From positions 1 through 10,552 of the forward strand of contig JBHLRQ010000109.1 in assembly GCA_048882385.1 (NCBI GenBank): a DNA stretch of 10,552 nucleotides, read 5' to 3'. Numbering within the stretch: the first letter of the stretch is position 1; every line of letters begins with the position of its first letter. A program made the translations under genes and the position numbers. The notes beneath the pieces were generated by a model. That model was given only the letters and a program-made list of their open reading frames with translations. It made no database searches and was not told the origin of the DNA. This DNA is from Candidatus Thorarchaeota archaeon. GTDB taxonomy: Archaea > Asgardarchaeota > Thorarchaeia > Thorarchaeales > Thorarchaeaceae. Below are positions 1 to 10,552 of the stretch, one piece after another.

Positions 1-43
1 CTTGTGAAAATACCTCCTTCTTATAATCTAAGCAGAAATAGAT

Positions 44-86
44 GTGGGCTAGACGAATTTTGAACTCGTGACCAATTCACTGTCAA
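44..86 (-). repeat. Degenerate intron-less 3' fragment of tRNA-Val(GAC), att-like direct repeat
   Basis: Minus strand TTGACAGTGAATTGGTCACGAGTTCAAAATTCGTCTAGCCCAC matches the spliced 3' half of the tRNA at 1870-2009 (TTGACAGTGCGGTGGTCACGAGTTCAAATCTCGTCCGGCCCAC) at 36/43 nt by manual alignment. No 5' half is recognisable. Confidence 0.8.
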
Positions 87-262
87 CGATGTGTCTATTC
101 AATCAATGGAATGATTGAATTAGAAGAGGATGAGTGGTATCACGGAGATGTAGGGTTTTTAAGAAAGGTCCGCAGAGGATAATCGGACCGTGTGGTGTGG
201 ACAATCATTGTGCATACTGGGGGAGCGTCCTTTGTTCTACACACATACTACAAGATGGAAGT

Positions 263-1753
263 ATGAAAATGAAGAAGGTTCAATTAATCGGAATTGAGAG
301 GTTGCTAAAGGAAAAGAGGAAACTGGACGTTCGAGATGTCGCCAAAGCACACTATAGACTTTTGCGTGAATATCCAATGCCTGTAGTGGAGATTGATTCG
401 ATAGAGGAATGTAAACCTGGTTCCTCAGTAAATATACGGATTAGAGATATGCCTGCACCAGCAGTGGATGTGTTTAAGGGCAAAATCACAAAGGACTCCG
501 AAAACGATCTTGATTTGCCGATATACCTGTCGTTTAGAACTACAACCGGTATTACTCTGAAGCCGTTATTATGCGAGAAAGAGGATCAATATACAGTTGT
601 AATCCCTGGAAATATAACAAATGGTCTCATAGGCATAATTTTTCCAATTCATGAAACCTTTGGACCTAAGGAAATCAGAGAAAATTATCCGGAGGATGTT
701 CAGAGATGGATAAATAAAAACAAGCATATTTCCCGCACGAGTCTGACCAAGGACGACTGTCCTATCCCTCCATTATCACCAAAGGATTTCCGATACTTGA
801 CGATGATATATCCCAAACCATTTCTCTCAGAGTTTCATTTTGTTATCGGAACGTGTCCAATTTGTCCTTACGGTGCGATAAAGGTAACAAGAAACTCCTG
901 TTTCGTTGATCCACTAATCTGCAGAGGTCAGAAGTACAGCTACCCTCCTAGGAACGAGGAGATTTGTTGGAACTGTTTCAATCCCACTGATGGTACTATA
1001 TCCACAAAATGCGACTACGTGACTCTTCGTAAAGTATTTCATATTAATCCTGACCCGCCAAAAAAGGAAGTTCCTTGTTGTGGAGCCTGTATCATAGGTG
1101 ATCTATGTTCTCAAGGAGCTATCGATAATTCGTATGGATTCTTCTCTGCTGACAAACAAAAATGCAATGGATGTATGGAGTGTTACTATGGCAAAAACTG
1201 TCCGTGGAACTGTGGGATAAATTGCTCACCTGACTGTGTACAATGGGACATTCACGAATCTGTGACCCTTCAGGCTGCAGATGGAGGTGGGTATCAGAAG
1301 AACGTCCACTATAACTACACAATGAGAATGGTTTCCCACATTGATGAGAAATCGAAACTAGTATTGTCAAAACTTGTATTGAGATTAGAAGACTTCTGGT
1401 GGAGGTCCCCATACGATTGGTACTTTGACCGTGACGATTTTGACTTTGATTCGGATGAGGCCAGCTTCGAGTTGTATCTCTGGGGCGATAAGTTCGAAAA
1501 AATACCTATCAAGCTAGACAAGAATGGTGTTCAGAATTTAAAACTGAAAGAGGTTCCATTCACAAGGAGTATACATCTTGGGCTCTTCAAAAAGGATGGG
1601 AAACTATTTGGGTTCTCACATTGTGGTTCAAATATACCGATACGGTCGTTAGGTGGGAAAAGATACTCCGACCCAACAATAATGATGAATGGAGGTACCT
1701 TTGACTTCGACTCACCAATCGGAAAAATTCAGATTGAATATCTGATAAAATAA
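263..1753 (+). CDS. Cys-rich protein with two 4Fe-4S ferredoxin-like repeats and uncharacterised N- and C-terminal regions
   Basis: ORF open from 134 (GTG); ATG at 263 (MKMKKVQ) preferred but uncertain. Motifs CPICPYGAI..VDPLICRG..CWNC and CCGAC..CSQGAI..KQKCNGCMEC..CP. Confidence 0.7.
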   Translation: MKMKKVQLIGIERLLKEKRKLDVRDVAKAHYRLLREYPMPVVEIDSIEECKPGSSVNIRIRDMPAPAVDVFKGKITKDSENDLDLPIYLSFRTTTGITLKPLLCEKEDQYTVVIPGNITNGLIGIIFPIHETFGPKEIRENYPEDVQRWINKNKHISRTSLTKDDCPIPPLSPKDFRYLTMIYPKPFLSEFHFVIGTCPICPYGAIKVTRNSCFVDPLICRGQKYSYPPRNEEICWNCFNPTDGTISTKCDYVTLRKVFHINPDPPKKEVPCCGACIIGDLCSQGAIDNSYGFFSADKQKCNGCMECYYGKNCPWNCGINCSPDCVQWDIHESVTLQAADGGGYQKNVHYNYTMRMVSHIDEKSKLVLSKLVLRLEDFWWRSPYDWYFDRDDFDFDSDEASFELYLWGDKFEKIPIKLDKNGVQNLKLKEVPFTRSIHLGLFKKDGKLFGFSHCGSNIPIRSLGGKRYSDPTIMMNGGTFDFDSPIGKIQIEYLIK

Positions 1754-1908
1754 CTCGTTTCCAAATAGCTGGGAAAAATACTATCTGACTGAAACAGTCA
1801 TACCCAGTGAATTCCAACTTTACAAGAATCGAATGATTGAACTCTGCTAAGTAATCAATGAGAATGAATTGGTGGGCCGGACGAGATTTGAACTCGTGAC
1901 CACCGCAC

Positions 1909-1938
1909 GTTTGAGCGTGCGTGGAAGTCAGGCTCGCA
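1909..1938 (-). other. Canonical tRNA intron at 37/38 (30 nt)
   Basis: Strict BHB: TTGA/TCAA 4-bp helix, bulges CA^T and AC^G, outer helix GCG/CGC. Confidence 0.9.
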
Positions 1939-1952
1939 TGTCAATGCGGTAT

Positions 1953-1984
1953 TTTCTCGCCAATTGGATTGATTCCAATCTGCT
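1953..1984 (-). other. Non-canonical tRNA intron in the D-stem 3' strand (about 23/24, 32 nt)
   Basis: Insertion with hairpin ATTGGA/TCCAAT closed by GC/GC; bulges TG^A and AA^A. The central helix is imperfect and the boundary is ambiguous by 1 nt. Confidence 0.75.
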
Positions 1985-2057
1985 CATAGCCGGGCTAGAC
2001 CACCGGCCCTGTGAAGTCTTTCTCCCTTGCTGATGATTAAAAACGTTGCGACAGTGC

Positions 2058-2330
2058 TTACATTTCTCTGTCTTTCCAACGGCTATAGAAATAGACCACA
2101 AAGACCAGAACGATCAATAATGGCATGCTAATAAGCATGTATGGCAGCATCGCTAGAAATCCTGGATCAAAATCTACAAGTGAGGAATCTGGTATTCCCA
2201 AGAAGATAACGCCCCCACCAAGAATTGCAGGAATAATTAGCAAAACCCCAATCACTATCAAAGTGATAATGACTCCTACGATTGAACAACCATAATCCTC
2301 AGCAGAATGGCTGCTACTGCTCTTGTTCAT
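2058..2330 (-). CDS. Small hypothetical membrane protein (about 2 TM)
   Basis: 90-aa ORF with two long hydrophobic stretches; GGAGGT just upstream of the ATG. Confidence 0.75.
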   Translation of the reverse strand: MNKSSSSHSAEDYGCSIVGVIITLIVIGVLLIIPAILGGGVIFLGIPDSSLVDFDPGFLAMLPYMLISMPLLIVLVFVVYFYSRWKDREM

Positions 2331-2353
2331 ATGGACCTCTCCAAAAAAGGCAT

Positions 2354-2572
2354 CTATGGATAATATCTCCTCGCTTGCCTAGCTTTTTGGCGAGCTCTTT
2401 CTTTTTCTTCATTGGTCACTCGTTCTGCATTCTGTGTTGCTCTATATCGGATTCCTTCAGATTCACTATAATGCCTTCGATTTCGAGAGTCCGATTTAGT
2501 CGCTTGATATAGAAGAACCACGACCACCACGATTACAACAACAAGTATGTATTCAAGCAAAGACATCCCCAT
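2354..2572 (-). CDS. Small single-pass membrane protein with basic C-terminal tail
   Basis: ORF open to 2623; MGMSLLEY start at 2572 preferred. TM YILVVVIVVVVVLLY followed by an Arg/Glu-rich tail. Confidence 0.6.
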   Translation of the reverse strand: MGMSLLEYILVVVIVVVVVLLYQATKSDSRNRRHYSESEGIRYRATQNAERVTNEEKERARQKARQARRYYP

Positions 2573-2664
2573 ATACAATCTATTCTGAAGTAAGATAAGA
2601 CTTAGGAAATTCATCCAGACCAATTTAGTGCAAACCTCAAACGTCTATTTCTGGAGGAATCATA

Positions 2665-2835
2665 ATGAGGAAGGGCGATAAACTCCTAACTCCATTGCTG
2701 TTTGTTGTATTCACAGTACTAGGATGCAATCCATTAGTTGGAGCTTATACTCATATGCAGGAGGAAATCAAAGTCTTTGTGGACTTGGATGCAGTTGTGG
2801 TCATAGGCGTGGTTGTATGTATACGTAGAAAATAG
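2665..2835 (+). CDS. 56-aa small ORF with hydrophobic ends (absent from the ORF track)
   Basis: MRKGDKLLTPLLFVVFTVLGCNPLVGAYTHMQEEIKVFVDLDAVVVIGVVVCIRRK*; GGAGG at 2653-2657; fills the gap between neighbouring genes. Confidence 0.5.
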   Translation: MRKGDKLLTPLLFVVFTVLGCNPLVGAYTHMQEEIKVFVDLDAVVVIGVVVCIRRK

Positions 2836-2844
2836 CTGATTGTA

Positions 2845-3279
2845 CTATTTTCCTGTGCTACCAAATCCTCCCTCTCCACGTTCTGTGTCCGAGAGCTCCT
2901 CTACTTCTACGAACTCAACTTCAGGTACTGGCCGGATTGCCAACTGGCTGATCCGCATTCCTTTCGTGATCTTGAAGGGCTCGTTGTTGTGGTTTATCAT
3001 GATGGTCTTCACCTCTCCACGATATCCACTATCGATTGTGCCAGGCGTGTTGAGGACACTGATGCCTTCCTTCAGCGCCAGTCCACTCCGTGGTCTGACC
3101 TGTCCCTCATATCCCAGGGGTATCTCCACTGCTATCCCTGTAGGAACTGCAAACCTTTCTCCCGGTCTAAGTTCATAATCAATGACTGAGTAGAGATCAA
3201 AGGCTACATCTCCTTTTCTCGCAGCTTTAGGAATCTGGGCATCTGGAGATAGTCGTTTGACACGTACCTTCACAGGCAT
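2845..3279 (-). CDS. dut: Trimeric dUTPase
   Basis: All five motifs: AFDL, RSG, GTIDSGYRGE, RISQL, RGEGGFGSTG. ATG 3279 follows GGAGGT; ORF open to 3303. Confidence 0.96.
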   Translation of the reverse strand: MPVKVRVKRLSPDAQIPKAARKGDVAFDLYSVIDYELRPGERFAVPTGIAVEIPLGYEGQVRPRSGLALKEGISVLNTPGTIDSGYRGEVKTIMINHNNEPFKITKGMRISQLAIRPVPEVEFVEVEELSDTERGEGGFGSTGK

Positions 3280-3366
3280 GGTTTGCACCTGACCTCCACA
3301 CATCTCTCATTCAGATATACGTGTAGGTGATAATACCGCCTAGTTGATAACATTTATATACAAATT

Positions 3367-3411
3367 ATGTATAGTACTATATGTCGTACAGTACATTGTT
3401 ACACACAATGT
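3367..3411. promoter_or_regulatory. Putative PadR-family operator cluster
   Basis: ATGT-N8-ACAT at 3381-3396, near-match ATGT-N8-ATAT at 3367-3382, inverted repeat ACATTGT-N5-ACAATGT at 3393-3411, just after TTTATATA (3353-3360). Confidence 0.6.
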
Positions 3412-3450
3412 CTGAAGAACAATAATAAAACAGAGGTAAACTAAGTGTCA

Positions 3451-3807
3451 ATGTCAAAAAAGACACAGGAAGAACTGGACCGATGGTCCAAAGAAGTAAA
3501 GCGGGGTGCTGTCACTCTGGCTATCCTTGCTCTTCTCAGCAAGAGAAGGGCTTACGGATATGAGGCTGTAAAGCTCCTCGATGATAAGATGTCTTTCTTG
3601 GCTCTCGAACAGGGCACAGTCTATCCCTTGCTGAGACGATTAGAGAAGCGTGAGCTCCTAGTATCTGAGTGGGACTATGATGATCCTACCAAGCCCAAGA
3701 AGTACTATGCAGTGACTGAAGAGGGCTTGAAGGCTCTTGGAGCTATGACGCAGACCTGGTCAGTCCTCTCGCGCGAGATGCGCGGTGTCTTAACGGAGGT
3801 TGAATAA
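3451..3807 (+). CDS. PadR-family transcriptional regulator
   Basis: RG..LAILALL..YGYE..GTVYPLLRRLE..KKYYAVTEEG winged-helix signature and C-terminal Trp helix. Confidence 0.95.
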   Translation: MSKKTQEELDRWSKEVKRGAVTLAILALLSKRRAYGYEAVKLLDDKMSFLALEQGTVYPLLRRLEKRELLVSEWDYDDPTKPKKYYAVTEEGLKALGAMTQTWSVLSREMRGVLTEVE

Positions 3808-3809
3808 TA

Positions 3810-4928
3810 ATGAGTAGTAATGATCCATTAGAACTAATCGATCAATATCTTGAACGTGTTAGAGTGTATCTTCCTCTAGACAGCGAAGATACAATCGTCG
3901 AACTTCAGACCCACCTTATTGAGGAGGCTGAGAGAATCGGCGGGGGTACAATGACTGCTGGCTCTGCCATGATGGCCATTGAGAGAATGGGTGATCCCAA
4001 AAGTGTTGCCAATGAGTATGCAGGCTCTGGCGAGAAAGTTGGACCTGTTCCAGCTGAGTATGTCAATCCACTGCTTCGGATGCTAGTTGTACTTGCTGGA
4101 GTTGCAGCCGCAATCATAGTGGGTGCCCTCACAATTGGAGGAGTATTCAGTGAATTGACAGGTCTGAACATTCAGAACTGGCCTTTCAGCATTCCAGTCA
4201 TGATACTGATTAACTTGGCAATAGCTTTCACAATAATCGGTATAATCACACTGCTTGATCGTAATAAGCCAATGACTGACAAGACAATTCTAGAGAATAT
4301 TTTCGGAATCGGTGTTGAAGGTTTCAAGCCGAAGGGGAGGTGGGATGCCTTTGGAGACCTAGTCATGGGTATCTTCTGGGGGCTCGTTCTCATGATTCCC
4401 GGTGTAGTTTTACTCTATACTCCAGCTTTCCGAGAGATCTACATGACAGTTGTCATCTTTCTGTTCCTTGGAGCAGTAAGAGGCGCACTATTCTATGCGC
4501 GTGGTGAGAACAACTTCAACTTGATTGTGGAAGTTGTCCTGAGCGTCGTTTGGATAGGAATTGCCGTGATTCTCATCAATGTTGGTTGGCCAATCCAATA
4601 CTTCTACAACTATGATGGTGTATCTTGGACGCTGTTCGATATGGTGACATTCTTCCAGACTAATGATATACCATTCGTCCCCTTTGACTGGATTTGGGCA
4701 TTCGTAATGTTCGTGACAGTTGCTATCTCAATCTGGAGAGTGATTGTCAACAGCATGAAGATCACCATGCACCTACGAGCTGGTAGGGGACTTTGGTGGC
4801 AAGGCAACTGGGGCAAGAAACGTCGTCTGCGAAGACCCTTCTGGAAGAGGGTACTTGGAGACCAGAACTCTACATACAATGAAACGACATACCATGATGG
4901 GTATATCGAATCCGATGAGTCGCAATAG
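3810..4928 (+). CDS. Multi-pass membrane protein with N-terminal HAAS/permease-prefix-like helical domain
   Basis: IDQYLERVRVYLP..ELQTHL..AIERMGDPKSVANEY followed by about 6 TM helices; starts 2 nt after padR. Confidence 0.85.
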   Translation: MSSNDPLELIDQYLERVRVYLPLDSEDTIVELQTHLIEEAERIGGGTMTAGSAMMAIERMGDPKSVANEYAGSGEKVGPVPAEYVNPLLRMLVVLAGVAAAIIVGALTIGGVFSELTGLNIQNWPFSIPVMILINLAIAFTIIGIITLLDRNKPMTDKTILENIFGIGVEGFKPKGRWDAFGDLVMGIFWGLVLMIPGVVLLYTPAFREIYMTVVIFLFLGAVRGALFYARGENNFNLIVEVVLSVVWIGIAVILINVGWPIQYFYNYDGVSWTLFDMVTFFQTNDIPFVPFDWIWAFVMFVTVAISIWRVIVNSMKITMHLRAGRGLWWQGNWGKKRRLRRPFWKRVLGDQNSTYNETTYHDGYIESDESQ

Positions 4929-4939
4929 ATTATGAATTC

Positions 4940-4971
4940 GTGAGGGTGTAATTCCCTCACATCTCTCTCTT
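4940..4971. terminator. Hairpin between convergent genes
   Basis: GTGAGGG-N7-CCCTCAC followed by pyrimidine tract ATCTCTCTCTT. Confidence 0.4.
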
Positions 4972-5180
4972 TATCCGCTTGAATCCTGTTTTTGTTTTAG
5001 TTCTCTAACTCCATAAGCGATACTTAGGACTATGATGACTGTAACAAGAACTGCCGAGAAGAGCGGAAGAGTCATGAATATAGCAATCACAAACACTGAT
5101 AGGATAAACAATGCTAGAATGAGCATCATGAGGTCCGATTCTTCAATTCCTAGTGGGAGTAATCCCCATTCAGCGCTCAT
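4971..5180 (-). CDS. Small 2-TM membrane protein
   Basis: 69-aa ORF with a hydrophobic hairpin; AAGGAG upstream of the ATG. Confidence 0.7.
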   Translation of the reverse strand: MSAEWGLLPLGIEESDLMMLILALFILSVFVIAIFMTLPLFSAVLVTVIIVLSIAYGVRELKQKQDSSG

Positions 5181-5295
5181 GTCGAAACTCCTTGTTACTC
5201 CCTCACAATCATATCTCGATATGAATAAACTGGTGATATCTAAAATCCTGCGTGAATAGAAACTACTTTTGTCTAGTCTACACTGCTAACAATCT

Positions 5296-5592
5296 ATGAG
5301 AGACATCAAACTAGAGATATTCGAGAGCGGTTGTGTAAAACATAAAGTTGGTGACAAGTTTGATTATCCTAGAGACACAGGCAAAATGTGTAACTGGTTA
5401 ATCGATAGTGCAAGTCACATGATTCGCGTACTCCAATATGATGGAAGACTAGGCTGGTCTTACAAGGGAACATCATATGAGAAAATCATCAACAAGGATG
5501 GAGTTACAACAGAATTTGTGAGGTGTCCAGACCCAACTTCTGCTGGAGTAGTCCTTAAAATAACTGCGACAAAGAGAATCCAAAAGAAATAG
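5296..5592 (+). CDS. TIGR04076-like small Cys-motif protein
   Basis: CxxHKVGD..F..MC..CPD..V pattern. Confidence 0.7.
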   Translation: MRDIKLEIFESGCVKHKVGDKFDYPRDTGKMCNWLIDSASHMIRVLQYDGRLGWSYKGTSYEKIINKDGVTTEFVRCPDPTSAGVVLKITATKRIQKK

Positions 5593-5595
5593 AAA

Positions 5596-5674
5596 TGGTG
5601 GGATGTGGCGGATTCGAACCGCCGATCTTCGCCATATAAGAGCAATGTCATTGACCCAGCTAGACCAACATCCC
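5596..5674 (-). tRNA. tRNA with anticodon UAU (Ile by anticodon) and Val-like body
   Basis: GGGATGT TG GTCT AGCTGGGTCAA TGAC A TTGCT CT TAT AT GGCGA AGATC GGCGG TTCGAAT CCGCC ACATCCC A CCA. Perfect acceptor and T stems; two G-U pairs in the anticodon stem. Confidence 0.85.
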
Positions 5675-5676
5675 AG

Positions 5677-5750
5677 TGGTAGGCCAGGAAGGACTGAAAC
5701 CTTCGATCTTCTCCATATCAGAGAAATGTCATACCCTAGACCACTGACCC
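5677..5750 (-). tRNA. Atypical or pseudo tRNA with anticodon GAU (Ile by anticodon) and Val-like body
   Basis: GGGTCAG TG GTCT AGGGTA TGAC A TTTCT CT GAT AT GGAGA AGATC GAAGG TTTCAGT CCTTC CTGGCCT A CCA. Stems pair with four G-U pairs; aberrant T-loop and short D-loop. Confidence 0.7.
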
Positions 5751-5953
5751 TCACTTATCAACAAAACAAGAAACCTGACAGGGACAACACCAATACTATG
5801 CACGTGGTATGATCCTGTAGGTTGTCATCTTAATCAGCACACTGACCCGCTTGATAGAATATAAGTCCGTGGTCAATTCCATTTGTCTTTACAATACCGG
5901 CGTACGCATAACAAGATTATTAACAATAGTTAAAATAATTTACCAGAACAACA

Positions 5954-6841
5954 ATGATCATATCTCCAACTATCATATCTCTCAGGGAAGGCATAGAGGC
6001 AGCTCTCATAATCGCGATTATGTTATCCTACCTTCGGAAAACCAATCAGACCAGTCTCAGAAAGTATGTTTTCTATGGGACAATTGCAGCAATTATCTCC
6101 AGTCTGGGTGTTGCGATAGTGGTTGGTCTACTATGGGGAATTTTTGAAGGTCCAATGCTTAACATCTTCGAGGGTTCGGTAGTTCTCATAGCAGCCATTC
6201 TACTCACAACGATGATTGTCTGGATGTGGAATGCTGGAGCTCGGGTGTCCCGGGAGATCGAAGAGTCTATGGAGATGTCAGTTGTTCAACAGAGTGGTAT
6301 TGGTCTTGCTCTACTTAGTTTCTCTCTTGTGATGCGAGAAGGAGTCGAACTGTCCCTATTCAGTATGGCACTTGTGATTCAAGAGGGATTAGTGAGCTAT
6401 GTTGGAATTGCTCTAGGTCTGTTGATTGCTATTGTTCTTGGAATTGGAATTTACAGGGGGTCATTACGTATCAGTATGCGAGCATTGTTCAAGTGGACCT
6501 CAATCTTTCTTATCCTATTCGCTGCAGGGATGGTAGCTTACGGAATCCATGAGCTACAAGAAGCTGGGCTGCTGCTTGTTGGACCAATTGAGATATGGAA
6601 TATCAATCCCCCCCAGTTGCCTGATGGAAGCTATCCCCTTTTTCATGAAAGAGGTGCCATAGGTGCTATGGCAAAGGCTCTGTTTGGATATAATGGGAAT
6701 CCATCAGCACTTGAGGTCGTGGCATATGTTGGATATCTGGTCATTGCATTGGCCTTCTATTGGAGAAAACGTAAAGGATTGGATTCCTTAGAATCAAACA
6801 AATCTACCAAAGCATCTATAGCTACAACTCCTAATCAGTAA
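5954..6841 (+). CDS. FTR1/EfeU-family iron permease
   Basis: Two REGxE motifs (REGIE, REGVE), about 7 TM, AAGMVAYGIHELQEAG and LFGY..PS signatures. Confidence 0.95.
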   Translation: MIISPTIISLREGIEAALIIAIMLSYLRKTNQTSLRKYVFYGTIAAIISSLGVAIVVGLLWGIFEGPMLNIFEGSVVLIAAILLTTMIVWMWNAGARVSREIEESMEMSVVQQSGIGLALLSFSLVMREGVELSLFSMALVIQEGLVSYVGIALGLLIAIVLGIGIYRGSLRISMRALFKWTSIFLILFAAGMVAYGIHELQEAGLLLVGPIEIWNINPPQLPDGSYPLFHERGAIGAMAKALFGYNGNPSALEVVAYVGYLVIALAFYWRKRKGLDSLESNKSTKASIATTPNQ

Positions 6842-6885
6842 AATCATAGAAACAAAGTGTACCACGGACCAGATTTGAATTGTGT

Positions 6886-7326
6886 TCAGCTTTTTGATTT
6901 CGGTTTTCTCTTCAATTGAATTAATTTCTTGATGTCCTCTACTGTACCCGTACCTGGCTGTTTGATCCACAGCCATCGCCCATCATGCAACTGCTTTGTT
7001 TCATCAAAGAGTTGCACAATATCTGTACTGAGCTTTTCTCTCATACTCTGAAACTTCTCTACTTCTTTCTTTCCAAGAATTACTTGAACTGTGAAGCCTC
7101 CATTTTCTGGATAGAACGCTGTGAGTGTTTTTCCACCCCTCCGGTATCTAATTGTCCAGCCATAGTTGTTTCCCCAATAACTCAACTCGGGTTGGAAATC
7201 ATAGTTCTCTGCTAAAAACTCCTGAAGTTCGTTCCATAATTTGGTCGCCTTCGTTCCTATGAACTCGAGTATCTGCTTCTCCGTCGGTTCAAGCTCCCCA
7301 CCAATCATCCGGTTTCTTTCGCTCAT
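6886..7326 (-). CDS. DUF3788-like protein
   Basis: GW..RYRRGGKTL..FYP....F...VILGKKE..HDGRWL..DIKKLI.LK pattern. Confidence 0.75.
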   Translation of the reverse strand: MSERNRMIGGELEPTEKQILEFIGTKATKLWNELQEFLAENYDFQPELSYWGNNYGWTIRYRRGGKTLTAFYPENGGFTVQVILGKKEVEKFQSMREKLSTDIVQLFDETKQLHDGRWLWIKQPGTGTVEDIKKLIQLKRKPKSKS

Positions 7327-7397
7327 GACTATCGTACTAAACTAGCTGTTTTCACTATTTCAAATAGATGCAAGTAAAAAAACCTGTTCACTCAAGC

Positions 7398-8570
7398 TTA
7401 ATACTTTCTGAAAGCTTTTGCAGCTGTAAACATAGCTGTGATATTCTCTGGAGGGACTTCTGCTGTGATATTATGGATATTTGATGCAATATATCCACCC
7501 CCTGGCCTCAAGCATGCCATGTTGCGTTGCACCTCTGTCCTTATTCTCTCTGGTTTTTCAAAAGGCAAAGTGCTCTGAGTATCACAAAGACCTCCCCAAA
7601 AAGTGATCATGGCTCCAAAACGTTGTTTGAGACTACATGGGTCCATGTCAGAAGCACCAATTTGAACTGGATTCACTGCATCATATCCGATCTCAGCAAA
7701 ATGAGGGATGAATCGAGATACTGCACCACAAGAATGATAGTTTATCCTCACATCTGCAAGTTTGTGCAGATTTTCTGAGAACCGTTTCTCAATCGGTTTT
7801 ATTATCGGTTCATAAATTCTCTCAGGGCTCATAATTGGACCTCTCTGTTGTGCGAGGTCTCCATTGTTGGATACAATATCAACATAGAATTCATCCCCAA
7901 ATTTGACCTCATTCAGAAATGTCTTAGCATAGTCAGTCCAATATTTCTCCAATTCCTCCATTGTGGCTACAATAAGGTCTGATCTTTTTTGTAGGTGTTT
8001 CATTGCTGTTGTGAATCCAAAGAGGAAATTTGTATACTCATAGATACACCCTAATGGCGGTGTAGCTATCGCATAATCAGTATTCTCTCTCAGTTCCTTT
8101 GCTTGTTCCCTTAGTCCCTTCAGAGATGATTTGTCAGAACCATCAGGCCAATCATATTCTCTTATCTCTTGAACTGAGTTCATCTCACATAGAGGATGAA
8201 TCACAGGATCATAGTATAGAATCTCTTTCAAGTCCTTGTCCGCACTATTTCCCCAGAACACTCCAAACTGATCCCAAATCCCTTGAAATTTACCCTCTAC
8301 CTCCGGGATGAAGTTTTCTGGAAGAATTGCAGATGGGGGATGCAACCATCTGACATCTATCTTCAGTTTCTGAAGTAACTCCTCACATGGTTTTGCAGCT
8401 TGTTGCACAAAATCACTATAGCTGATAGCTTTATCCTCTATGCTGAGAAAATCAAGAAGGTTCTTGTAAGCAATCATGTGGATGCCTGACTGGTTGCCTC
8501 CGAGGTCAAGAGGAACCATATCGGGTTCCTTGTGATTTAGAGCTGTCATTACCCGTTCTCGTGATTTCAT
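7398..8570 (-). CDS. Uroporphyrinogen decarboxylase (URO-D)/methyltransferase-like family protein
   Basis: MKSRERV..AL.H.EPD.VP start, D.FGV.W, HSCG, NPVQ, FWGG.DTQ..LP, GGGYI....HNI. Confidence 0.9.
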   Translation of the reverse strand: MKSRERVMTALNHKEPDMVPLDLGGNQSGIHMIAYKNLLDFLSIEDKAISYSDFVQQAAKPCEELLQKLKIDVRWLHPPSAILPENFIPEVEGKFQGIWDQFGVFWGNSADKDLKEILYYDPVIHPLCEMNSVQEIREYDWPDGSDKSSLKGLREQAKELRENTDYAIATPPLGCIYEYTNFLFGFTTAMKHLQKRSDLIVATMEELEKYWTDYAKTFLNEVKFGDEFYVDIVSNNGDLAQQRGPIMSPERIYEPIIKPIEKRFSENLHKLADVRINYHSCGAVSRFIPHFAEIGYDAVNPVQIGASDMDPCSLKQRFGAMITFWGGLCDTQSTLPFEKPERIRTEVQRNMACLRPGGGYIASNIHNITAEVPPENITAMFTAAKAFRKY

Positions 8571-8571
8571 G

Positions 8572-9615
8572 TTAATATCCCCCGTATTTTTCTACTACTA
8601 ACCTAGCTAGTCTGAGATTCTGTATCACTAGGTCTAAGGGCTTCCAAGGCCACTCACAACCTCCCGAATACATGTACCTTCCTTCCGGTTTGCCATCTTG
8701 AATGACTTGTATGATATTCTTCTCTATCTCTTCTTGAGTAAAAGCGGAACTCCCAAGAAGAGTTGTATTAGTGTTCCCACGTAAACACACTTTGCCACCT
8801 ACTTTCCTCTTAGCTAATTTCATATCAACTTGATAATCTATGTCAAGAATGGATGCACCTGAACTTGCAATGAGCTCGAGCATATCCCTGCCTTCTCCAT
8901 CAATAACAGAACTATTTCCACACACATGATAGAGAACAGGTACTTTCATTGATATGCTTTTGAACAAGTGGCGTGTCGGATCTAGGCAAGCTGTTTCATA
9001 ACGTTTGGGACCAATCTGGGATACCGCTGAGTCTCCCACACCAATAATCTCTGCTCCAACCTCAATCTGCATCTTGGCAAATTCAAGCTGAATTGGCAAG
9101 ATACGGTCGATTAGTTTCCTGATACGATCAATCCAGTCAGAATAGCGTGCCATCTTCAAGACGCTCATCAGCCCAAACAAACAACAAATCTCAGCAAATG
9201 GTGCTTCAATCCATCCCACAACACACTGTTCTGATCCAATCTGCTTACTTAGCAATTTCACAGCTTCTATACGGTTCTGGACCCTTATTGCAGAATCAAG
9301 ATCTGGTTCTTCAGTAGAATCAAATTCGCCCAAGGACAAGTGAGTCTTTGCCACTGGTGTATGTCCAGTAAAATCCATTTCGACTCCCCAAGCACTGGCT
9401 TCTCGATACGCATCGGTCGAAACATGTACATGGTCCAGACCAAATACAGTAGCGAGTTTAATTTGAGACTTCGCAAGCACATGGGCATCTTGACAATAGA
9501 CATTTGAATAATCAATATCATCGATAGCTGCGGCTAGGTGCATGATGAAGGGATTGAATGGGACTCTCTCTGGAACATCATCGATAGCAGTAAGCGTGAG
9601 ATTCCTCGAGTTCAT
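8572..9615 (-). CDS. URO-D family, MtaA/MtbA/CmuA-like methylcobamide methyltransferase
   Basis: EASAWG, GW.EAPF, HVCGN and C-terminal GCE (His-x-Cys...Cys Zn-ligand arrangement), CLRGN. Confidence 0.8.
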   Translation of the reverse strand: MNSRNLTLTAIDDVPERVPFNPFIMHLAAAIDDIDYSNVYCQDAHVLAKSQIKLATVFGLDHVHVSTDAYREASAWGVEMDFTGHTPVAKTHLSLGEFDSTEEPDLDSAIRVQNRIEAVKLLSKQIGSEQCVVGWIEAPFAEICCLFGLMSVLKMARYSDWIDRIRKLIDRILPIQLEFAKMQIEVGAEIIGVGDSAVSQIGPKRYETACLDPTRHLFKSISMKVPVLYHVCGNSSVIDGEGRDMLELIASSGASILDIDYQVDMKLAKRKVGGKVCLRGNTNTTLLGSSAFTQEEIEKNIIQVIQDGKPEGRYMYSGGCEWPWKPLDLVIQNLRLARLVVEKYGGY

Positions 9616-9629
9616 ATCAATCCCATTTT

Positions 9630-10552
9630 TCAGTACTCAACTCTCCATATGAGTGGTTCTTCCCGAGTGCTATCTCCCCTGATAATGAGTCGGTCTTCTT
9701 CTAGAACCAACTCAGATTTCTTCTCGTTAACAAACAACTTTGAAATTCTACTAGGCTCTTTATCACTTAGCTTTATGTTTATAGTCCAAGTCCCTGAAGC
9801 AGATGGAGAGTATCGACCTGAATACCCACTCTTTGACTTCTCTAGTTCAAGTAATGGTGACGTGAACCTATAGGTTTCAAAGGGTAACGATGGGGAGAAG
9901 TCAACACCCGAGATAGTGAACTCAATTCCCAAGAGCTTTGCAGCCGAGTAGACTGGCCATGCGTGTGGATGCATATTCATCACAGGAAAGTCTGTCCATC
10001 CCACACCCATGAATCCCTGTTCCTCCTCCTGCTGATCTTCTTCAAGTGCATCACTCACTCCACCTCTTTCCTCTACAACAATTGTTTCTCCGGGTTTATC
10101 AGAAAACTCCGAATTGTAAACATCTGGTCCACTCCAAATACCATACCATACATCAGGATATTCTTCAGCATGCTTTGATAGAGTATTACGTTTCCACTCT
10201 TCCCAAGCCATGTCTGAGTCAATCAATGCTAATGCCCATACCAGAGTTCCATTGATTGAGAGCCAGACCCCTGCATTTGTACCTATTCCTGGTTTTCCTG
10301 CCATCTTCTCAAGAGGTTCGGAGAGAATAACTGCGCCATGTTTTGAAAAACGTCTCGCGCCCTCGTTTATAGACTTCAATAGGACTTTCACTTGATTTTG
10401 GTCTGCTGCACCACCAATGATTGTCCAAGGTTGTGGTTCAAGCCACATAATATCAGTACCTACCCATCCAAGCGTATCGCTCAACCAAGCACGTTTGAAC
10501 CAATCCCCATTCCATTGTTCTTTAACAGCTTCTTGTTGCTTTCTGGCAAAGT
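9630..10552 (-). CDS. GH94-like glycoside phosphorylase/hydrolase, C-terminal part (5' end outside window)
   Basis: Frame stays open to the window edge (FARKQQEAVKEQWNGDWFKRAWLSDT); W.G.W..RA, LEPQPW, NAGVW and YGIWSGPD motifs. Confidence 0.65.
   Translation of the reverse strand, partial: FARKQQEAVKEQWNGDWFKRAWLSDTLGWVGTDIMWLEPQPWTIIGGAADQNQVKVLLKSINEGARRFSKHGAVILSEPLEKMAGKPGIGTNAGVWLSINGTLVWALALIDSDMAWEEWKRNTLSKHAEEYPDVWYGIWSGPDVYNSEFSDKPGETIVVEERGGVSDALEEDQQEEEQGFMGVGWTDFPVMNMHPHAWPVYSAAKLLGIEFTISGVDFSPSLPFETYRFTSPLLELEKSKSGYSGRYSPSASGTWTINIKLSDKEPSRISKLFVNEKKSELVLEEDRLIIRGDSTREEPLIWRVEY

Follow-up and report, generated by a model that had tools for sequence, protein, structure and literature searches.

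Accessory tRNA genes with the isoleucine anticodons UAU and GAU in Thorarchaeaceae and a possible second route for reading AUA

The window described here is the 10,552-nt stretch of contig JBHLRQ010000109.1 (positions 1 to 10,552, assembly GCA_048882385.1) from a Candidatus Thorarchaeota archaeon of the family Thorarchaeaceae. It carries two adjacent tRNA genes, UAUx and GAUx, named after their anticodons, which lie on the minus strand behind a promoter-like box and a conserved leader. The source (G000) is an archaeal metagenome-assembled genome (MAG) of 3.7 Mb in 256 contigs, 95% complete with 4.9% contamination, and the window is its contig C109. UAUx and GAUx are supernumerary: they come on top of a complete set of genes for decoding isoleucine and do not replace it. 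The elements of the unit are as follows, in their order on the minus strand.

5857..5876, minus strand: promoter-like element TTGACCAC..CTTATATTC, similar to an archaeal BRE/TATA (alignment of 18 loci)
5751..5835, minus strand: leader of about 85 nt that runs up to GAUx, with a possible hairpin (alignment of 18 loci)
5677..5750, minus strand: GAUx, accessory tRNA gene with anticodon GAU (ARAGORN and Rfam RF00005, 53.5 bits, E 1.8e-9)
5675..5676, minus strand: spacer of 2 nt between the encoded CCA of GAUx and G1 of UAUx (CT, AT or CA in orthologues)
5596..5674, minus strand: UAUx, accessory tRNA gene with anticodon UAU (ARAGORN and Rfam RF00005, 58.3 bits, E 8.4e-11)

Transcription on the minus strand would pass through GAUx, the spacer and then UAUx; the offset between the two genes differs by one base in the orthologous loci L036 and L185. 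An earlier sequence-only reading of the window had described two CCA-encoding tRNA genes 2 nt apart with the anticodons UAU and GAU, and ARAGORN and Rfam agree with it. Both genes match the RF00005 model over its full length (positions 1-71) with scores above the gathering score of 29 bits. UAUx has 76 nt plus the encoded CCA, lacks an intron and folds into a canonical cloverleaf with the acceptor stem GGGATGT/ACATCCC. It possesses U8, A14, GG in the D loop, U33, A37, the T loop TTCGAAT, a G53-C61 pair and A73. GAUx is shorter, with 71 nt plus CCA and a D loop of only 6 nt, and is less regular: its T loop reads TTTCAGT, in which U replaces C56, and its first pair is G1-U72 (A1-U72 in four orthologues). 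The anticodon loops, CTTATAT in UAUx and CTGATAT in GAUx, both contain A37 and the U38 that had been reported for them. The block said to be common to the two genes is also real, extending over 29 nt with 3 differences from ATGAC via the anticodon arm to AGATCG. By structural position, the genes are identical at 11/11 sites of the D stem, 12/14 of the anticodon arm and 5/5 of the variable loop, and diverge elsewhere, with just 6/15 in the acceptor and 10/17 in the T arm.

The canonical tRNA-Ile(GAU) of the genome lies at G000:C20:576-679 on the plus strand, with the anticodon loop CTGATAA and the acceptor stem GGGCCCG/CGGGCCC. It was overlooked by ARAGORN and by simple scans because a 29-nt intron sits inside its T loop; orthologues in relatives have no intron, or have introns elsewhere (D loop, position 38). 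The acceptor strand GGGCCCG recurs in a tRNA with the anticodon CAU on contig C108, by inference tRNA-Ile2, and separate tRNAs of the elongator-Met and initiator types are present as well. G000 also encodes TiaS, as an open frame of 445 aa, together with one IleRS and one ValRS. Among the 36 family genomes searched by BLAST, the canonical tRNA-Ile(GAU) was matched in 30 and the CAU tRNA in 33. Of 87 Thorarchaeia genomes, 76 yielded a TiaS, including 11 of the 12 with full-length UAUx (the exception is G015). Since G000 already has this normal decoding set, the pair amounts to spare copies. Replacement, as expected of a UAU-type AUA decoder in a genome without TiaS and tRNA-Ile2(CAU), is not what is found, for TiaS and the CAU tRNA are both present.

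UAUx and GAUx share only A73 with the canonical tRNA-Ile body; their acceptor stems differ from it and their position 38 is U. The sequence-only reading had proposed that the pair is not the normal tRNA-Ile of the lineage, and the canonical tRNA-Ile(GAU), the CAU tRNA with the same acceptor and TiaS elsewhere in the genome bear this out. It had also allowed that this body could be the normal tRNA-Ile after all, or that the genes could be unconserved; neither is the case, given the separate canonical set and the conservation described below. One of its premises failed, as the GCTCAG..GAGC D arm expected of tRNA-Ile is absent from the canonical tRNA-Ile(GAU) of the lineage and occurs in the CAU tRNA alone. 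The tRNA inventory of G000 still leaves about 10 expected anticodons unaccounted for. When run with introns, ARAGORN mis-called intron-bearing genes (Val(CAC) as Arg, Val(UAC) as Thr) and returned four implausible long-intron genes, and the splicing heuristic used here misplaced some introns (D-loop introns, the Val(CAC) loop). A degenerate second copy of tRNA-Ile(GAU), consisting of the 5' half and the anticodon arm, lies at G000:C115:9459-9540 on the plus strand (82% over 55 nt). Its T region is not tRNA-like, and the copy could represent a pseudogene or what remains of an integration site.

Full-length UAUx, at identities of at least 89%, occurs in 11 of 86 other Thorarchaeia genomes (eight of genus g1, one of g4 and two of g3), while G009 holds a decayed remnant, and a metagenome scan contributed 12 further loci. 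Conservation was assessed over 18 orthologous loci with 14 distinct UAUx sequences. Mean column identity of UAUx is 97%, against merely ~73-77% in the DNA of the adjacent FTR1 gene, and the anticodon loop CTTATAT, with UAU, U33 and A37, is invariant in all 18. Every change in the UAUx stems keeps pairing, one of them by compensation (C-G to U-A); non-standard pairing is confined to position 13-22, which is unpaired in all 14 sequences. GAUx is looser, with a mean identity of 92%, 91% of cells paired and zero compensatory changes, so that support for selection on its stems is weaker. Fifteen loci have GAU as its anticodon, two (L040, L183) have GAC together with broken stems, and one (L185) has UAU. 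UAUx is thus under strong purifying selection, whereas GAUx is drifting and has turned into a pseudogene in several lineages. In genus g3, GAUx is a wreck without CCA, and the UAUx orthologue of G086, from the same genus, has mismatched stems. That GAUx has decayed, and in G009, G086 and G090 the unit as a whole, is consistent with the genes being dispensable.

The UAUx orthologue of G090, also of g3, deserves separate mention (L201, G090:C105, locus 1501-1579, minus strand). Its cloverleaf is intact, its anticodon is UUU and its discriminator is G73, a combination also found in the tRNA-Lys of the lineage. This gene may represent a natural anticodon shift.

The promoter-like box upstream of the pair reads TTGACCA..CTTATAT; its TTGACCA and TAT do not vary across the 18 loci, unlike the flanks. 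It lies ~150 nt upstream of GAUx, and the conserved leader starts ~25 nt downstream of it, at a 5' end that was set by the distance to the TATA-like box. The box is a putative promoter element. Within the leader, the conserved blocks are GATTAAGATGAC, ATCATA, TGCATAG and GTCAGGTTTCTTGTTTT. A scan of the leader against Rfam returned no significant family (best non-tRNA match, E 0.15), and RNAalifold gave no convincing consensus, with just 5 weak pairs. A hairpin drawn by hand from one of the sequences is 73.5% paired, compared with 29-40% when it is slid along, and its covariation is weak, being reached by 49 of 500 shuffles. A C/D-box sRNA was considered for the leader and dropped: AUGAC alone is conserved, not RUGAUGA, and CUGA occurs in some loci only. 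In a sediment metatranscriptome, one 351-nt contig spans 5596-5776, that is, both tRNAs and 26 nt of leader, with 90-95% likeness. This single contig is a weak hint of expression only, as DNA carry-over is possible. One run also contained a small share of the sampled words (0.10); the parts not covered carry no information.

We give about an even chance to the reading that the pair forms an accessory isoleucine tRNA unit, in which UAUx would provide a second, agmatidine-independent route for AUA and GAUx would be redundant and decaying. The unit would comprise the promoter, the leader of ~85 nt, tRNA-GAU, the 2-nt spacer and tRNA-UAU, and would probably be dicistronic, transcribed as a single RNA. 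It would have been inherited within Thorarchaeaceae and kept in some lineages only. UAUx, which has the regular build of an elongator-type tRNA and is under strong purifying selection, would most likely be charged with Ile by the single IleRS via A35, U36, A37 and A73, and would read AUA in parallel with the TiaS- and agmatidine-dependent tRNA-Ile2(CAU), possibly with a modified U34. GAUx would be the faster-evolving paralogue, duplicating the canonical tRNA-Ile(GAU) and therefore dispensable, which would suit its decay in several lineages.

Several observations weigh against this reading. The pair lacks both the GGGCCCG/CGGGCCC acceptor stem and the A38 of the two canonical Ile tRNAs; if IleRS reads these elements, the extra tRNAs would be poor substrates. 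Work in Haloferax is double-edged. U34 mutants of tRNA-Ile were charged in vivo, though less well, carried cnm5U and bound AUA > AUG > AUU (PMC3895270). The UAU mutants were poor IleRS substrates that also bound AUG (PMC3895270), and an unmodified UAU tRNA therefore risks placing Ile at Met codons. Those mutants were made in the laboratory on an authentic Ile body, whereas UAUx is natural, conserved and has another body; both exist beside the native system. The unit is, moreover, not found or decayed in most of the class, a count to which MAG incompleteness applies. Finally, AUA usage is alike in genomes with the pair (21.9 per 1000 codons) and without it (15.5-24.5 per 1000 codons; small samples), so there is no signal of codon demand. 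In G000 itself, ATA makes up 24% of Ile codons, or 18.4 per 1000 codons.

The pair could instead consist of non-translational or decaying tRNA-like genes, serving as a processing or regulatory element of the leader transcript, as the substrate of another enzyme, or simply approaching loss. GAUx lends itself to this explanation. Its elbow is degenerate: most orthologues lack GG in the 6-nt D loop, and TTTCAGT, TTCCAGT and TCTCAGT occur as T loops. No compensatory change is seen in GAUx, and in L040, L183, L201 and L202 it is a pseudogene. The conserved leader reaches right up to this first tRNA, and the distribution of the unit is patchy. UAUx does not conform, as it keeps every canonical feature and an anticodon loop that never varies among the 18 loci, which is the pattern of a decoding tRNA; even in GAUx, the GAU anticodon loop is retained in 15 of 18 loci. 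A role outside translation is, on balance, rather unlikely.

Another explanation concerns the origin of the pair, which the sequence-only reading had tentatively assigned to valine tRNAs. In this scenario of alloacceptor recruitment, UAUx and GAUx descend from tRNA-Val(UAC/GAC), in which C36 mutated to U, and now serve Ile codons. The window itself contains a valine tRNA for comparison.

1870-2009, minus strand: tRNA-Val(GAC) with two introns, one of 32 nt in the 3' strand of the D stem and one of 30 nt at position 37/38

This gene, already named as a tRNA-Val by the sequence-only reading, is overlooked by ARAGORN and by Rfam at the gathering score, and its introns become visible in an alignment to the intron-less orthologue of G035. 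The TGGTCTAG..ATGA(C/T) D arm that had been likened to that of tRNA-Val is not peculiar to valine, since it also occurs in the tRNA-Pro of the lineage and partly in tRNA-Gly and tRNA-Arg. Whole bodies were compared over 62 columns, excluding the anticodon and the D loop, in 77 class-I tRNAs of G000, G001 and G035 that had been found by Rfam or by scan; the set omits Leu and Ser tRNAs. UAUx matches Val(GAC) of G035 best (43/62), followed by other Val (41), Pro (38) and canonical Ile(GAU) (35-37, with 35/62 for the tRNA-Ile of G000 itself). GAUx is closest to Pro(GGG) (41), ahead of Val (40) and Ile (35-37). As a control, the best cross-isotype match of 75 ordinary tRNAs averages 44.4 with a range of 37-51, while within one isotype the isoacceptors mostly agree at 47-62 positions. 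The likeness to valine tRNAs is therefore background, because 43/62 and 40/62 both fall within the cross-isotype range.

Canonical tRNA-Ile(GAU) genes from across the family give a similar picture, with one exception. Twenty-four of them share 33-41/62 with the pair, and the twenty-fifth, from G063 (genus g5), is an outlier with 46/62 to UAUx and 44/62 to GAUx, above any Val. The match includes 12/14 positions of the anticodon arm and 5/5 of the variable loop (BLAST, 77%). This gene (L203, G063:C160:8825-8902) combines the canonical acceptor with the pair's anticodon stem TCGCT/GGCGA and variable loop AGATC, and could be a link between both types or a product of gene conversion. A maximum likelihood (ML) tree of 134 rows recovers strong clades of UAUx (100/95) and GAUx (100/99) and leaves both in a polytomy, 62 columns being too few for the deep forks. 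In approximately unbiased (AU) tests, grouping the extras with Val costs 10.6 in likelihood (p 0.35) and grouping them with Ile(GAU) costs 3.95 (p 0.44); neither is rejected. The body may descend from tRNA-Ile, tRNA-Val or another tRNA, and the valine origin proposed earlier is not favoured.

Recruitment from valine nonetheless has points on its side. Within G000, G001 and G035, tRNA-Val is the top match for UAUx, and outside the family 3/6 BLAST hits are tRNA-Val(UAC/CAC) with 75-77% identity. The D stem and variable loop are Val-like. The degenerate GAUx copies in L040 and L183 read GAC, and the G090 orthologue with UUU and G73 indicates that anticodons do shift in the UAUx gene; UAU in the first gene of L185 is a further change of this sort within the gene family. 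In described cases of tRNA remolding or alloacceptor recruitment, a tRNA body is unlike the normal tRNA with the same anticodon (PMC3923123, PMC4783518), and the same is true here. A remolded gene is, however, clearly nearer to its donor and usually replaces the old gene, while here no donor rises above background and the canonical tRNA-Ile(GAU) is kept in G000. The best valine score lies below the mean of the cross-isotype best matches, tRNA-Pro surpasses Val for GAUx, and the tRNA-Ile(GAU) of G063 surpasses Val for both genes. The tree leaves both clades in a polytomy, the valine grouping costs more likelihood than the isoleucine grouping, and the anticodon of the GAC copies, in which stems and D arms are broken, may be mere drift. 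Derivation from a valine tRNA is accordingly an unlikely history for the pair.

The absence of the canonical Ile acceptor-stem signature and of A38 could also mean that UAUx is not an ordinary substrate of IleRS. A different synthetase might charge it, or it might serve only under certain conditions, for example when agmatine or TiaS activity is limiting. This possibility is unlikely; were it true, AUA would have a second, regulated meaning or route in some Thorarchaeota.

Import of the cassette by a virus or mobile element is a question for the neighbourhood of the pair, in which the following features matter.

5296-5592: ORF98, with no Pfam match
5579..5904, no strand assigned: presence/absence segment lying between ORF98 and FTR1 and comprising promoter, leader and the two tRNAs
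5954-6841: FTR1 gene, coding for an FTR1 permease, with the tRNA unit just upstream in most loci

The genes around the pair are ordinary chromosomal ones, encoding a dUTPase, PadR, a HAAS-domain membrane protein, FTR1, DUF3788 and two URO-D/MtaA-like proteins. In every locus of genera g1, g3 and g4 the unit adjoins HAAS and/or ORF98. FTR1 accompanies it in g1; in G030 (g4) and G090 (g3) no neighbouring FTR1 was found. In the pair-less loci L165 and L170, the alignment extends to 5578/5574 and picks up again at 5905/5908, with merely 26-58 nt in between. Segment 5579-5904 is therefore a clean presence/absence difference against pair-less FTR1 loci, and it is independent of ORF98: neither ORF98 nor the pair is present in L163, L177, L162, L167 and L176, and L171 has the pair without ORF98. 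The intergenic region from the HAAS-domain gene to FTR1 (5238-5912) is an indel hot spot, in which relatives have neither, either or both of ORF98 and the tRNA unit.

Such a clean indel in a variable intergenic spot, patchy over three genera and carrying tRNA bodies unlike any host tRNA, is what an imported cassette might leave behind. The remaining observations speak for residence in the chromosome. A 23-nt pattern of the UAU gene had 0 exact matches among 2.9 million viral contigs, neither an integrase nor repeats were noticed next to the unit, and the unit keeps its HAAS/ORF98 neighbours in all three genera. GC is even over the whole window, and that of the tRNA-pair segment equals its flanks. 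Import is thus highly improbable, and we read the history of the unit as vertical inheritance in Thorarchaeaceae with repeated loss. Elsewhere in G000, tRNA genes encode their CCA and commonly have introns, and a tRNA-SeC is among them (G000:C4:5427-5517, minus strand). Two near-identical, intron-bearing genes for initiator-type tRNAs lie on short contigs (G000:C188:1420-1518 and C229:490-588); these duplicates may reflect a mixture of strains in the MAG, whose contamination is given above.

Codon meaning was checked in five neighbouring protein families by comparing loci with and without the pair after identical sequences had been dropped. All rows are related to one another and come from a single genomic region, which makes this a coarse check. 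ATA codons in pair-bearing genomes align in pair-less orthologues with Ile in 70% and Val in 11% of cases (n=304), and ATT/ATC codons with Ile in 66% and Val in 16% (n=981). In the reverse comparison, ATA codons of pair-less genomes align with Ile in 68% and Val in 15% (n=194). ATA codons in pair-bearing genomes thus show normal Ile usage with no hint of valine, and the insertion of valine at AUN codons that the sequence-only reading had entertained finds no echo in these columns. ValRS depends strongly on A35 and C36. Mischarging, in which the extras would keep a valine (or other) identity and insert that residue at AUA/AUY as ambiguous decoding, might be suggested by their lack of the canonical acceptor stem and A38, and by an Ile/Val exchange mild enough to be tolerated, but it is very unlikely, since U36 should cripple charging by ValRS, the codons align much as in the reverse comparison, and strong purifying selection would be odd for a mistranslating tRNA beside correct decoders.

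Returning to the accessory isoleucine unit with UAUx as a second reader of AUA, known systems offer partial parallels. Nanoarchaeum equitans and Korarchaeum cryptofilum, which have tRNA-Ile(UAU), are said to lack TiaS, whereas here TiaS and the CAU tRNA coexist with UAUx. Eukaryotic tRNA-Ile(UAU) genes carry an intron that is needed for the pseudouridine-A-pseudouridine anticodon, and the intron-less UAUx differs from them in this. It has the same type of anticodon as the eukaryotic cytosolic tRNA-Ile(UAU), which reads AUA via U34 and not via a modified C34 (PMC8879553). Among archaea, a survey of 167 genomes reports UAU anticodons in two, N. equitans and K. cryptofilum (PMC6000648). Their genes are, like UAUx, archaeal UAU genes presumed to read AUA. 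The Korarchaeum gene is reported to be a close duplicate of the organism's tRNA-Ile(GAU) (PMC6000648), in contrast to UAUx and the canonical tRNA-Ile of G000. The survey included no Asgard genome, and 'Asgard', 'Thorarchaeota' and 'Lokiarchae' appear 0 times in it (PMC6000648). In bacteria, the tRNA-Ile(UAU) of Mycoplasma mobile reads AUA with U34 (PMC3575796) and replaces TilS, while UAUx adds to TiaS. No account of a UAU tRNA in Asgard archaea or Thorarchaeota emerged from a literature search, although the supplementary tables of PMC6000648 may list further cases.

AUA is the only sense codon for which bacteria, archaea and eukaryotes have found different chemical solutions, and archaea are thought to depend on the agmatidine made by TiaS. 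If the plainer version of the proposal is true, an Asgard lineage would have independently evolved a eukaryote-style U34 route for AUA while retaining the archaeal one. Natural genomes with both routes would allow the shift between AUA decoding strategies to be studied directly. The unit would also show how spare tRNA genes drift, through anticodon changes to UUU, GAC and UAU and through repeated decay. The pair also matters for annotation: its genes are labelled tRNA-Ile solely on the strength of the anticodon, while an intron in the T loop hides the canonical tRNA-Ile(GAU).

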